A stretch of 64,000 bases of DNA from Rhodospirillaceae bacterium (GCA_002746255.1 NVWO01000001.1:230102-294101); one strand, 5' to 3'; positions 28,628 through 39,008 are shown, counted from the first letter of the stretch. Numbers and translations: made by a program. The notes: generated by a model not told the origin, from the letters alone.

Positions 28628-29762
28628 TCAATAAGGCCAATTTACGTTCTTAAACCGTTGCAAAAGTTTCGTCGCGTAGTCAGGCTCAATCATCTTTGCG
28701 AAATCAATCAGTCCGCGCAGGTGGGCTTTCATACCCCATATCGTATCAAACTCCCGAGCCTTCGCATGTTCAGTCGGACCGAATTTTTCCAGATAGTGAA
28801 TATGAAGGCGGAGATTGTCTTTGAACTCCCTTCGCAGACTTGGCTTAGGGCCACCCACATTCAGGCCAAGTACGATTTTTCTGCTCCCCGGAGGGATCAG
28901 TTTTGTCTTTCTATGCTGGGTCCGAAAGCCCGCCGATGACAAAATTTCCTCAATGGTATGAATAAAGGACGATGCAGTGGACCGACCGAAATTCTTCTCC
29001 GGTGTCGAGAAGGTCAGGTCATCGCTATAGCGCGTATACGTCAGTCCTGCTTCTCTGGCAGCATCGGAAATCCGCGTATCAATTGGCGTCATGATGAGAT
29101 TTGAGAGCATGGGGCTCGTAGGAGCCCCTTGAGGCAAATAACCCAGTACACCCGTCGAATAGGCAGGAATTTTCTCATTTCTGCGCCTGACCTTCCAAAC
29201 CGGATCACTATGGCGCGGGCTTCGATCCACTGGACCGATCGTTACTATCCGAGCAAGTTCGAATGACACCAGCGGTTGGTAACCCAGTGCTCTGAAAACA
29301 CGAAACACCTGGATCTCCGATATTGATTCGAAGAAGCTGGTGACATCCATTTTAATGAGTCATTGCGCCCCGCAATGCCTGCTCGCACATGAAAAAATGG
29401 ATCCGCCGGGTGCAAACGCAAAGCTGCAACTGTGAACGGGAACATATCTGGAGGATATACTTATTAAGCCATTTCTGAACGTGGCTCAAAGAAGGCGATG
29501 GCACATGAATGAAACGCCTTCCGCCTGACCGTTTTCGGATCGAAAATTTCCGGTATGTATCGATCTTGGAACGCTGAACGACGCTGCGCAGAAATTGGTA
29601 GGGCACCTTTGCGCGGGTAGCCAAGTGGTTGAGCGAGAGAATGGCTGGTAACTTCGGTTCACCCGACTCGACGGCTTCGATCTGCTCAATAGCGGTTGCA
29701 ATCGTGTCGTCGCCTAAGCCCTTCTTCTTCGCCTCTGCCCTATATTGATGAGGGGACCACAC
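28628..29762 (-). pseudogene. retron-type reverse transcriptase, disrupted by one frameshift and one in-frame TGA
   Basis: RT motifs are split over three frames. The first piece reads RKFSIRKRSGGRRFIHVPSP...HVQKWLNKYILQ. A frameshift near 29445 leads to YVPVHSCSFAFAPGGSIFSCASRHCGAQ, which ends at TGA 29360-29362. The last piece reads LIKMDVTSFFESI...LPQGAPTSPMLSNL...YTRYSDDLTFS...VLGLNV. From memory it aligns colinearly with the Ec86 RT. Confidence 0.75.
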
Positions 29763-29942
29763 GTAGACTACTCCGGTGGTGCCGGCACGGCGACTGCGCG
29801 CGCTGGCGACCCGAGGCCCACGATGGAAGGAGGCAGCGTGCGCAATCTCCAGTCATGCGTAGGCTTTCCCAAAGGGCAATGGAACTCCACGCCCCAACAG
29901 CCGTCAATATGGCGACTGCGGCAACATTGTTGCCTGCTTACA

Positions 29943-30212
29943 CTAGCCACGTGCGGCCCTCCTCAACTGTTGGGGAAAGTAATATTCGTCGCCCCTTGCA
30001 AGGACGCCCCCGTAAACTTTCCCCTGATCTTTCGCGGCTGCAAGCTCGGTACGTCCGAGAACTGTCAAACGAATCGATTGTGTTAAAAACCCCCACTTAA
30101 TGCATCGATTGATGATCTCAGTACAGCTTTCGCGGTTCAGCCCTGTTGCAAAGCTCAGGGCGCTTTGTTTTCTCTGTCCCTTGGCAATGAGGGCGAGAAT
30201 AAGAAGGATCAC
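29943..30212 (-). CDS. small winged-helix-like DNA-binding protein
   Basis: 89-aa ORF with an HTH-like pattern (LSFATGLNRESCTEIINRCIKWGFL). It sits between the PRTase-like gene and the RT. Confidence 0.5.
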   Translation of the reverse strand: MILLILALIAKGQRKQSALSFATGLNRESCTEIINRCIKWGFLTQSIRLTVLGRTELAAAKDQGKVYGGVLARGDEYYFPQQLRRAARG

Positions 30213-30235
30213 CTAACCTGTCTCGCCGCGTTGGC

Positions 30236-35536: not shown

Positions 35537-35555
35537 GTCACCGCCTCCGCAACTT

Positions 35556-36125
35556 TCACGACATTGCGGAGGCGGAGTTTGCCCGCGCTTGGTCGATTTT
35601 GTCCTTTTTCTTCCTTAAATATTGGCTAGGGTTCCAGCCACCGGGGTTTTGGGCAGGGATATTGTATACGTTTCGAAGTCTTTGCGCCAAATCCGAGGCC
35701 GCTAAGCCAAGGCGGGCATATTGATGCTGGCGTTCTTCAAAGACTTCTTCATAGTCAGGTGGAAAAGCTACCTCAGAGCAAACAAATGCAATCGAACGGT
35801 TTGCAGCTTCAGCTTCGCCTGGGAGCGTCAAGAGCACGTACATCAGTTCGCAATCAATGCTTTTCCAGTCAACATCGTCAGGATATATCAGAGGCGCTGG
35901 TAGCGAAATTTGAGGATGAAGGCAGCCTTCCTGATCTTGCTGGCCGCCATCATCTTGGACAACCTCGACACATTCATTGACATACCTATCGAGAATGCAA
36001 GCAATACGCACGGAGAGGTACCTGGCGTGCCGCGCCCGCATCCTCATGTCTGACCACGCGTCTTTTATCAAAGTGAGTAAGGCTCCGATAAAAACCCCTA
36101 AAAGACCAAAAACAGCTTCGCTCAT
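35556..36125 (-). CDS. hypothetical protein with one N-terminal TM helix (189 aa) nested in the hsd operon
   Basis: The N-terminus AVFGLLGVFIGALLTLI is hydrophobic. The start overlaps the hsdS stop as ATGA. Confidence 0.5.
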   Translation of the reverse strand: MSEAVFGLLGVFIGALLTLIKDAWSDMRMRARHARYLSVRIACILDRYVNECVEVVQDDGGQQDQEGCLHPQISLPAPLIYPDDVDWKSIDCELMYVLLTLPGEAEAANRSIAFVCSEVAFPPDYEEVFEERQHQYARLGLAASDLAQRLRNVYNIPAQNPGGWNPSQYLRKKKDKIDQARANSASAMS

Positions 36126-37423
36126 GCCACGGCCTCCACAGCGTCTTCAGCCTCTCGGAGGCGGATTTTGCCGGACATGAGCTTTGGCAAAAGCAGGTCG
36201 CGGGTCTGGACGAGGGTGCGGCTCTCGTGAATGTTTGCGATGATCCGGTCGATCATCGGTTGCACGGTGTTCTGGAAGGCGCAGATAACAAGCTCCGGCG
36301 GTAGGCAAAGCCCATACTGGCCCATAGCCTTCCAACTCGTGCGCGGCATTTTCGTGCCCGTTGAGGCTTGGTTGGTGTAAGCAATGAATTCATCGGTTGA
36401 GATACACGCCAGCACAAAGACGGACCAGTCAGCCGTCCTGGGTGTGAGAACAACAATGTCGGTGGAACAAATACCACTTAAGGGGGCGACCCCGACCTTG
36501 TGGAAGTAAGGCCTCAGCTTGCCAAACAGAAATTCGCCCCTCTTGAAAACTGACTTGTTGCTCGTGACTTTGCCTGCACCCTCCCATTCCGTTAGAGCGA
36601 TTGAGCGGCGGGGCATGTGTTCAAGGCCGATGTAAGGTGTTTCCTCGGAAACATCGGTAGGGCTGATTCCTCGCCTTGGAGATTCCGCAACGTCGGCTAG
36701 GCATCCAAGCTCCCACCCCACCGGCTTGTCGTCATCGTCGAGGGCGTCGGGAAACAGGCCCCAGATATCCGGAGCAAGGTAGGGTTCGCGGCCTTCGGCC
36801 TTGGCGCGGGTGGGGCCGAAATCGACGAACCAGTCCTTGAAGATCGCCCGCGCCATCGCCTCCAGCGTCTCATTCATCCGCCGGTTCAGCTCGATCTTAT
36901 CGTCGAGGGACCCCAGAGTTTCTGCGATGTTGTGCTGCTCGGAAATCGAAGGAAGAGGAATATGAATTCTATGTATGTCACGAATAGGAAGTTGAGGTTG
37001 AGCACTTCCTGTGGTCAGGGCAGAGACTTGGTTCCTAAAGAGGCGCGACCTCAAAAATAAGTACAAGTAACGCGGAACGATTGTTGGTTGATCTGGCCGA
37101 AAAATTACCATTCCAGAGTTGATACGCACATGATCAAAAGGGATGGAATCATCATAGAAAGCTACATTTCCCACTGTACCTCGCGTTGTCAAAACACTGT
37201 CGTATCGCTTGAGCTTTCCTTTTCTTAAGAGGTTGTCGCGTTCTTCGCTAATGAACGAACATTCGGAGAACTTAAAGCCAGTAGAACTCACGTTTCCAGC
37301 ATTCAAAAACAAGCAATGGCCGCTCGGAGCAAATTCCGCCTGCTTTGGGTAGTTTACCCCCCTGTCGCCATCGATGATTTCAATAGGCGCTTCTAAGAAC
37401 GTCGGTTGTGCCCACTCATCCAT
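36122..37423 (-). CDS. hsdS: type I restriction-modification S subunit
   Basis: 433-aa ORF with two target-recognition halves separated by conserved helical spacers ([16 protein letters not shown] and [12 protein letters not shown]). It overlaps hsdM by 8 nt. Confidence 0.85.
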
Positions 37424-39008
37424 TAGCGCTCACCACCTCTAGCTTTGCTTGGATGAGCGCGCCAAGCTCCTCGGCTTTGGAAAACTGTTCCTCCAGCGTT
37501 TCCTTTAGCTCCGCAAACCGCTCCTCAAACGGCACGCCGTCATCTTCCATATCCGCTGCGCCGACATAGCGACCTGGCGTGAGAACGTGGTTGTGAACCT
37601 TGATCTCTTCCAGAGTCGCGGATTTGCAAAAGCCGGGAATGTTCTCGTAATCGCCCGCGTCTGGTTCACCACGCCAGGCGTGATAGGTGTCGGCGATCTT
37701 GACAATATCCTCCTCTGAGAACTCTTTACGGGTACGGTCCACCAGAGCACCAAGTTTACGTGCGTCGATGAACAGCACTTCCCCGCGCCGGTCACGCCAG
37801 ACTCCTTTTTGTCCTACCGCTCCGCTGCTTAAGGCCGCGCTGGGGTTCTTGTTGCGGGAGAGAAACCACAGGCAGGCGGGAATCTGAGTTGAATAGAAGA
37901 ACTGCCCCGGCAGAGCGATCATGCAGTCCACCACGTCGCCCTCAACCATGGCGCGGCGGATATCGCCCTCGCCGGATTGGGTGGAGGACATGGAGCCATT
38001 GGCCAGCACCACACCAGCGATGCCGTTCGGGGCCAGGTGGTGGATGATGTGCTGAAGCCACGCATAGTTTGCGTTGCCGACCGGCGGGACGCCGAATTTC
38101 CAGCGCAAATCTTCACGCAGGCGCTCACCGCCCCAGTCGGAGATGTTGAAGGGCGGATTGGCGAGGATGTAATCGGCCTTGAGGTCCGGCAATTCGTCCT
38201 TGTGGAAGCTGCCCTCGTTGTTCCAGCGGATGTCGGCATCGATGCCGCGCACCGCGAGGTTCATCTTGGCGAGCCGCCACGTCGTGTAATTGCTCTCCTG
38301 CCCATAGATGGCAATGTCGCCGATGCGCCCACCGTGCTCTTCGACGAATTTCTCGGACTGGACGAACATGCCGCCGGAGCCACAGCACGGGTCATATGCC
38401 CGGCCTTTGTAAGGCTCCAGCATCTCGACCAGTAGCCCAACCACGGAACGTGGTGTGTAGAATTCACCCCCGCGCTTGCCTTCAGCGCCAGCAAAACCGC
38501 TGAGGAAATATTCATAGACACGGCCAAGGATGTCCTTGGAACGGTCGGCCTTCTCGCCCATGCCAATGCCGCTGATGAGGTCGATCAGCTCACCGAGCAT
38601 GATCTTGTTGAGCGCGGGGCGTGCGTAGTCCTTGGGCAGAACCCCCTTGAGCGAGGCGTTGTTGCCTTCGATCGCGAGCATAGCGTCGTCGATGAGCTTG
38701 CCGATCGTCGTCTGCTTGGCATTGGCCTGAAGATGCGACCAGCGGGCGTCCTTCGGCACCCAGAAGATGTTGTCGGCGAGATATTCTTCGGGGTCCTCAG
38801 GGTCCGCGAGTTCCTCGCCGCGCAATGCGGCGCGCTTGGCCTCGAAGGCGTCGGAAATGTACTTCAGGAAGACCAGGCCAAGGGCGACGTGCTTGTAGTC
38901 GGAAGGCTCCAGATTTCCACGGAGCTTGTCTGCGGCAAGAAACAGCTGTGCTTCAAAGCCCAAATTGGCTCCATTGTTATTCTTTGAGTTTTTCTTGGCG
39001 CGCGTCAT
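37416..39008 (-). CDS. hsdM: type I restriction-modification M subunit (N6-adenine methyltransferase)
   Basis: HsdM N-terminal domain ([25 protein letters not shown]), AdoMet motif DPCCGSGGM and catalytic NPPF. Confidence 0.92.

Follow-up and report, generated by a model that had tools for sequence, protein, structure and literature searches.

We describe a block of genes located between positions 28,628 and 39,008 of a 64,000-nucleotide (nt) stretch of DNA from a Rhodospirillaceae bacterium (GCA_002746255.1, NVWO01000001.1:230102-294101; this whole stretch is referred to below as the window). The block is an unbroken run of open reading frames (ORFs), all on the (-) strand. It comprises a type IC-like restriction-modification (R-M) operon, which carries two catalogued candidate cassettes (PDC-S67 and PDC-M24), and downstream of it a type III-A retron that is dead (Table 1). 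The window is identical to the ENA metagenome scaffold L001, and both the Logan assembly of SRR5988120 and three JGI contigs are identical to it over the parts that they cover.

A first-pass annotation, made from the sequence alone, had depicted the block as a co-directional, tightly packed cluster composed of hsdM and hsdS, three nested ORFs, hsdR and three further genes for PRTase-like, wHTH and reverse transcriptase (RT) proteins. The common orientation, the tight packing and the location of the passengers in the slot between hsdS and hsdR were all confirmed. The last three "genes" turned out not to be intact; they are pieces of two broken retron genes.

Nested genes of the type IC-like operon

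Table 1. Genes and other features of the block, listed in the direction of the operon (window coordinates)
Feature	Coordinates	Strand	Description
Intergenic region upstream of hsdM	39009..39199	(-)	191 nt; sole sizeable non-coding gap upstream of the block
hsdM	37416..39008	(-)	530 aa, methyltransferase subunit; Pfam N6_Mtase 2.5e-104, HsdM_N 7.4e-24; PADLOC MTase_I 3.7e-216
hsdS	36122..37423	(-)	433 aa, specificity subunit; Pfam Methylase_S 1.8e-18; PADLOC Specificity_I 2.1e-91 (residues 25-432)
Passenger 1, PDC-S67 candidate	35556..36125	(-)	189 aa; PADLOC PDC-S67 1.6e-68 (residues 1-186)
Passenger 2a, PDC-M24A	35090..35536	(-)	148 aa; Pfam DUF6978 4.6e-46; PADLOC PDC-M24A 1.5e-57
Passenger 2b, PDC-M24B	34332..35093	(-)	253 aa; Pfam DUF1828 4.9e-27, DUF1829 3.5e-31; PADLOC PDC-M24B 1.6e-102
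hsdR	31183..34323	(-)	1046 aa, restriction/translocase subunit, type IC-like; TIGR00348 1.3e-184
Retron effector pseudogene (fused PRTase-CE + wHTH)	29943..31186	(-)	1-nt deletion at ~30315; TAG at 30213-30215
Retron non-coding RNA (msr-msd)	29752..29962	(-)	spans the 180-nt gap; overlaps the 3' end of the effector gene and the 5' end of the RT gene
Retron RT pseudogene	28628..29762	(-)	1-nt insertion at ~29449; TGA at 29360-29362

Judged by their content and order, the hsd genes are predicted to encode an R-M system of the type IC-like class. All three subunits look full length in comparison with the profiles, and the order M-S-R is present. Pfam Methylase_S covers the first half of HsdS only; the two target-recognition domains were recognised through the PADLOC model Specificity_I, which extends over almost the whole protein. 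HsdR contains an HSDR_N nuclease domain, a SWI2_SNF2 motor, and T1R_D3-like and T1RH-like_C domains (Pfam), and its closest solved relative is the HsdR subunit of the type IC enzyme EcoR124I (1e-34).

The junctions within the block leave little non-coding DNA. The hsdM and hsdS genes overlap by 8 nt, an ATGA overlap (36122-36125) joins hsdS to the 189-aa ORF, and a second one (35090-35093) joins the 148-aa ORF to the 253-aa ORF. The 189-aa and 148-aa ORFs are separated by 19 nt, and the stop codon of the 253-aa ORF precedes the start of hsdR by 8 nt. Finally, the TGA of hsdR overlaps the start of the PRTase frame by 4 nt (GTGA, 31183-31186) if the GTG at codon 4 is used, as in the gene calls, or by 13 nt if the first GTG is taken as the start. 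Since these overlaps and the gaps of 8-19 nt leave the passengers no room for promoters of their own, their transcription most likely starts at the hsd promoter and their translation is most likely coupled. The operon promoter itself is likely to be located in the intergenic region upstream of hsdM, where a scan with the sigma-70 consensus revealed no site. Internal promoters or terminators, named at first pass as features that would separate the units, were sought in a sequence scan: neither terminator-like sites (17 versus 13.5+/-3.4 in shuffled sequences) nor promoter-like sites (5 versus 6.4+/-3.2) exceeded the numbers found in shuffles, and none of the (-)-strand terminator-like sites was located between genes.

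The first passenger, for which no Pfam match was found, was recognised through its PADLOC profile. It belongs to a family that is rare: 5.8 billion proteins contained only 48 homologues. Its N-terminal helix is hydrophobic (Kyte-Doolittle maximum of 2.07, residues 2-20), and the AlphaFold2 model (pLDDT, the predicted model confidence score, of 94) comprises a 55-residue helix (residues 2-56) followed by three further helices (92-119, 126-153 and 166-188). The model presents S67 as a predicted membrane-anchored helical bundle consisting of a single protein, and we regard it as a putative membrane-acting single-protein module. There were no meaningful neighbours among solved structures: a Foldseek search of the PDB returned generic helical bundles only, and a search of BFVD returned one uncharacterised protein of a member of the Myoviridae. 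The genetic context of S67 varies. One homologue occupies another hsdS-hsdR slot without M24 (L170), a second, flanked by a PLD and a TIR gene, has a type I R-M system and GmrSD as neighbours (L172), and a third stands alone with housekeeping genes around it (L174).

The three nested ORFs had originally been considered unrelated to each other; however, the 148-aa and 253-aa ORFs constitute a conserved two-gene cassette, PDC-M24A/B. M24A carries a conserved motif rich in His, Asp and Glu. It has no solved relative, and among the 1016 clusters scanned the long members were found to have no second Pfam domain, except for one that is either an A-B fusion or a frameshift. M24B has 5609 homologues, and the best 120 of these, which originate from several phyla, all have lengths of 253-258 aa and identities of 60% or more. 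A DUF1829 domain is also present in the second protein of the HipAD system, the partner of a HipA-like kinase. The AlphaFold2 model of M24B is poor (pLDDT 65), and with this weak model Foldseek produced no match at E <= 0.001. The non-significant matches include proteins of the restriction-endonuclease fold (Kpn2I, MspJI, VC1899, Card1 and Can2), and such a fold may be treated as a lead for M24B. When the PDB was searched by sequence and by profile, no match to S67, M24A or M24B fell below E = 0.02, and NCBIfam provided no names for the passengers. Profile searches of the nested ORFs were productive (PADLOC for S67 and M24A/B, Pfam for M24A/B); the structures assigned no function.

The context of M24 was analysed in 80 metagenome loci; only the Hsd family of the window was used as the query, so that all hsd counts are lower bounds. 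Of the 68 loci in which the upstream sequence was long enough, 66 had M24A immediately before M24B. In 19 of the 28 loci with adequate flanks the pair was embedded, i.e. it was preceded by hsdS or hsdM and followed by hsdR on the same strand. The homologues of the passengers are strongly linked to hsd genes, and a lack of enrichment near R-M or defence genes, which the first-pass annotation had named as grounds for its refutation, was not observed. The co-directional downstream HsdR proteins are 45-75% identical to that of the window, with the exception of L155 (26%). More than half of the embedded loci have room for another gene before hsdR, which suggests that passengers are commonly stacked; S67 and the retron were each found in none of the 80 loci. 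Among the non-embedded loci, one pair lies by a convergent hsdR, one follows a KAP NTPase gene and three are surrounded by housekeeping genes. M24 is thus an obligate A+B pair with a strong preference for the type IC slot, which is able to exist without hsd, and its occurrence alone identifies it as an autonomous passenger.

In one of the loci examined (L147:700-8145), M24A/B was placed between a gene for an SNF2 helicase with an NOV_C domain and a gene for a DUF1156 protein, within a DISARM-like cluster and not in a type I R-M operon.

Remains of a type III-A retron

The R-M operon had also been thought to drive retron-type accessory genes; both of the retron protein genes are, however, pseudogenes in this strain. 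The "PRTase" ORF (30236-31195) and the "wHTH" ORF (29943-30212) are two pieces of one gene: the PADLOC model PRTase_III-A (368 positions) aligns with the former over positions 6-268 and with the latter over positions 286-366. The "RT" ORF (28628-29350) represents the C-terminal 240 codons only, and the N-terminal 106 codons are found in another frame (29352-29762). Correspondingly, positions 4-106 and 138-371 of the model RT_III-A (4.8e-112) fall on two ORFs in different frames. The closest intact relatives encode one PRTase-CE+wHTH protein of 413-414 aa and, after a gap of 180 nt, an RT of 377 aa. When repaired, the RT of the window is 377 aa long and matches dozens of proteins of exactly this length, with 100% coverage and up to 77% identity.

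Four lesions were placed by protein-to-DNA and DNA-to-DNA alignment with the intact relatives. Two are substitutions and two are indels, and each gene contains one of each. In the effector gene the frame changes between the residues VFP and PEI (tblastn) and TAG replaces a Glu codon; in the RT gene TGA replaces the codon for an invariant Trp (W134). Apart from these lesions the genes have hardly changed, as none of 87 other invariant sites is altered in the repaired RT and one of 55 in the repaired effector, and the inactivation of the retron is therefore recent. Neither an intact RT gene nor an intact PRTase-wHTH effector gene is present, although the motifs of the effector are retained. As read from its genes, the type III-A retron appears to be dead at this locus and would contribute nothing; with the RT broken, multicopy single-stranded DNA (msDNA) is not expected to be formed.

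For the retron to be functional, with the hsd operon driving a working system, the lesions would have to be assembly errors or be bypassed by recoding. The otherwise pristine state of both genes fits this possibility, as do the nearly intact non-coding RNA (ncRNA), the position of one indel in a run of five C, and the ends of two JGI contigs within the effector gene, which hint at strain variation. Against it stand four independent lesions, which are of two kinds and affect both genes; the TAG at Glu and the TGA at the invariant Trp are substitutions. All four lesions occur in both the ENA and the Logan assemblies, whose sequences are identical here; no intact version with more than 77% identity exists among 5.8 billion proteins, and the other genes of the block are read through normally. 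Sequencing error and recoding were consequently rejected as the cause of lesions of two kinds which are the same in two assemblies, and we consider a functional retron at this locus to be extremely improbable.

The contig ends just mentioned belong to L003 and L004, which come from different samples and both stop exactly at position 30637 of the window. This suggests a branch of the assembly graph, with co-existing strains that differ downstream. By a rough estimate from a small sample, the number of lesions (four, versus almost unchanged invariant sites) is also greater than that given by neutral drift, and it may reflect selection for loss of the retron, e.g. because of toxicity.

In the region of the ncRNA, DNA identity reaches ~95% among loci whose retrons as a whole are 67-73% identical. 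Rfam contains no retron RNA family that matched, either at gathering thresholds over the whole window or at permissive E-values over 29650-30050, and the ncRNA was therefore demonstrated by comparative folding. The fold is closed by an a1/a2 stem of 18 bp and contains three small and two long hairpins, and compensatory changes were observed in 19 of 34 consensus pairs (20 sequences). An msr-msd ncRNA with flanking inverted repeats is thus present beside the RT gene; the copy in the window has three unique broken pairs.

Retron-Eco11 (type III-A3) has an ncRNA that overlaps both the effector gene and the RT gene, and its defence depends on all three components; phage helicases activate the PRTase effector, which then depletes phosphoribosyl pyrophosphate (PRPP) (PMC12746101). 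The remains in the window resemble this retron in that the effector encoded upstream is a PRTase + wHTH fusion of about 413 aa, and in that the ncRNA overlaps both genes, is closed by a long inverted repeat and forms three hairpins in the msr and two in the msd. The effector also keeps the PRPP-type motif, G-x14-PNNxP and a YYFPQQLRR-like C-terminal peptide. The differences are that the two protein genes of the window are broken, and that the start of the effector gene is fused to the stop codon of hsdR. PADLOC assigns the retron to type III-A only, and not to A3, A4 or A5. These findings carry a warning for annotation: where ORFs for PRTase, wHTH and RT follow one another, they can be what is left of a two-gene retron.

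Exchange of modules and the role of the passengers

The link between hsdR and the retron was examined in 84 loci containing this RT family, with the HsdR family of the window as the only tblastn query. An intact co-directional hsdR was found upstream of the retron in two of them, i.e. L008 (metagenome) and L010 (Rhodobacteraceae bacterium WD3A24), and a remnant in a third, L011 (a Rhodospirillaceae metagenome-assembled genome). All of these loci belong to a clade whose RT is 74-78% identical to the repaired RT of the window. L008 and L010 have intact retrons, the GTGA junction of the window and HsdR proteins 81-83% identical to its HsdR. This junction and an intact retron are also found in L011, which has lost ~3.07 kb of hsdR; the remnant (L011:4833-4940), made up of the first 28 and the last 52 nt of the gene, is located between PDC-M23B and the retron. 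The overlap of the hsdR stop with the PRTase start, reported at first pass, is real and has been kept in relatives with intact retrons.

These three loci share with the window the hsdR family, the GTGA junction between hsdR and the effector gene, the retron and the ncRNA (about 95%). They differ from it in that their retrons are intact and their slot contains PDC-M23A/B, a HamB-like helicase pair. The similarity of L006 and L009 starts only at the ATG of the effector itself, with unrelated genes preceding it, and no co-directional upstream hsdR of this family was detected in more distant III-A retron loci. Since the linkage is confined to the clade of L008, L010 and L011, the fusion to hsdR is a feature of a sublineage and not of the retron type. 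A general functional link between the retron and hsdR was rejected on the same counts (two of 84 loci plus one remnant, all in one clade).

In an ancestor, a type III-A retron was probably joined to the end of hsdR, in such a way that the GTG of the effector gene came to overlap the hsdR stop (GTGA). The subsequent losses were reciprocal: the window keeps hsdR and has lost the retron, and L011 has lost hsdR and keeps the retron. The fact that either module can be lost alone, together with the differing cargo of the slot, argues for the stacking of independent modules rather than for one integrated system. The reciprocal losses show that tightly coupled defence modules decay one by one. The locus also clearly illustrates a known rule, by which defence cassettes are exchanged in the slot between hsdS and hsdR of type IC operons, here with a shared hsdR-retron backbone and PDC-M23 or S67+M24 as the cargo.

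A known occupant of this slot is the anticodon nuclease PrrC, which in the prr locus of E. coli lies between hsdS and hsdR of a type IC operon (EcoprrI; hsdM-hsdS-prrC-hsdR). The window resembles the prr locus in its type IC-like operon, the identical gene order and the presence of a foreign defence gene between hsdS and hsdR. It differs in that its nested genes are not PrrC homologues (the PADLOC PrrC model had no match at E <= 0.01 among the three nested proteins), and its PrrC-like gene, PDC-S06, is located outside the operon.

Other cargo has also been described. Payne, Hughes, Fineran and Jackson (2024) surveyed type I R-M, BREX and DISARM systems for embedded genes and named 145 candidates on the basis of "guilt-by-embedding"; their supplement includes PDC-M24 among the candidate cassettes and gives it a count of 153 (bioRxiv 10.1101/2024.01.29.577857). 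The nested ORFs match the PADLOC models of PDC-M24 and PDC-S67 directly, in the context from which these models derive; the difference is that the window stacks both candidates in one slot. In the RRDM island of enteropathogenic E. coli, DarTG2 lies between hsdS and hsdR, and this site has been regarded as a potential recombination hotspot for defence systems (PMC12255303). That island likewise has a two-gene module in the slot, which is expressed together with the rest of the island, and it differs from the window in its cargo and in an RptR-like regulator gene, which the window does not have upstream of hsdM. The arrangement, which at first pass was not known as described, is thus a fresh example of a described phenomenon, in which candidates already catalogued are combined with a type IC R-M system of the standard kind and with a type III-A retron that is dead. 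As modular stacking within a defence island it is of modest interest, which lies in the strong and specific embedding of PDC-M24, the changing cargo of the slot on a conserved hsdR-retron backbone and the reciprocal loss of modules.

The explanation which best accounts for the locus as a whole, and which we consider probable, is that a type IC-like R-M operon has served as the carrier of independent, self-contained passenger modules, and that the retron ancestrally joined to it is now inactivated. The operon, situated on an integrated island beside a tRNA-Ser gene, would carry other defence modules, with S67 and M24 as two independent cassettes inserted in the hsdS-hsdR slot. The cargo of this slot is exchangeable, as shown by PDC-M23A/B in the place of S67+M24 in L008, L010 and L011. 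Each cassette would most likely act as a self-contained second-line anti-phage module of the abortive-infection type, and not as a subunit of the R-M enzyme. M24 may be a two-protein module of this type, composed of an effector and a regulator and possibly nucleolytic.

Several points weigh against this explanation. Anti-phage activity of PDC-S67 or PDC-M24 is not reported in the literature searched, and the fold searches with S67, M24A and M24B point to no function. The single transcript and the translational coupling are deduced from gene spacing alone, and the ENA and Logan assemblies, in which the four retron lesions coincide, may stem from the same reads. Moreover, M24 is embedded in a high proportion of loci (68%, a lower bound) and is almost confined to one HsdR family, which would also fit a functional dependence on that enzyme.

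The last of these points leads to another possibility, namely that M24A/B, and possibly S67, are latent toxins resembling PrrC, which the type IC Hsd complex would keep inactive until a phage anti-restriction protein disables it and so frees them; the nesting would then serve a function and not mere convenience. The nested genes occupy the very slot of PrrC and are tightly coupled to the operon, M24 is mostly embedded and nearly always accompanied by the same HsdR family, and the weak endonuclease-fold matches of M24B and the His/acidic motif of M24A are compatible with a nuclease effector. The Foldseek matches are, however, non-significant and were obtained with a poor model. M24 also occurs without nearby hsd genes in at least three housekeeping contexts and once in a DISARM-like cluster, S67 is found alone in L174, and PrrC is matched by neither protein and only by the product of the separate PDC-S06 gene. 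Such a guard function is unlikely and is not favoured for M24. A more far-reaching proposal, in which PDC-M24 is a second PrrC-like class of guards, silenced by this Hsd family and triggered when phage anti-restriction proteins disable the enzyme, and the fusion of hsdR to the retron start ties an abortive-infection layer to the expression of hsdR, appears slightly less likely still. PrrC is described as almost always embedded (Payne et al., bioRxiv 10.1101/2024.01.29.577857); the fraction of M24 (at least 68%) is high, and the survey makes this cassette worth an experimental test.

It is also conceivable that the passengers are selfish addiction or mobility genes, similar to toxin-antitoxin systems, which exploit the R-M operon for their expression and inheritance and play no part in phage defence. 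The strict adjacency of M24A and M24B and their stop/start overlap are typical of toxin-antitoxin pairs, the cassette is highly conserved across phyla, and homologous PHROG families are present in phages. The occurrence of DUF1829 in the partner of a HipA-like kinase could be read in the same way, but the system in question, HipAD, is a validated defence system. Furthermore, the contexts contain mostly defence genes and not mobility genes, and Payne et al. removed mobilome-associated families before the PDCs were named. We consider this possibility to be improbable, well behind a guard function, and retain the view of the passengers as self-contained defence modules carried by the R-M operon.

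The surrounding island

The block is part of a lower-GC stretch starting near a gene for tRNA-Ser (GCT; 16614-16703), and beyond about 20 kb its GC content is 0.45-0.55, compared with about 0.60 before that point. A gene for a large serine recombinase (16995-18881, (-) strand) is located close to the tRNA gene and is followed by DUF2924 and DUF3489 genes (all within 16614-19933). The tRNA-Ser region is likely to be the integration site of a defence-gene island. A repeat of the end of the tRNA-Ser gene, which would delimit the island, was sought within the window and none was found.

Two further sets of genes were identified in the island. On the (+) strand (20414-25212), a gene for an SbcD/Mre11-like metallophosphatase (424 aa) lies beside a gene for a 1173-aa AAA_27/SMC-like ATPase, and the two form an SbcCD-like pair; the ATPase has no PADLOC match and that of the phosphatase is marginal (4.4e-06). 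The PDC-S06 gene (25302-27602, (-) strand; PADLOC 5.3e-136) encodes a 766-aa AAA_13 ATPase, residues 476-730 of which match the PrrC model (2.5e-13). It is located ~1 kb downstream of the dead retron and is co-directional with the operon, although outside it.

Upstream of hsdM lie a DUF5681 gene (39200-40276) and a ParB-methyltransferase gene (40144-41652). Contig L003 (JGI 3300033050) lacks 11 nt (GGGAGATTTTC) which are present in the window at ~40243-40253, and this deletion fuses the two genes into one ORF of 766 aa. The difference represents real population variation upstream of hsdM.

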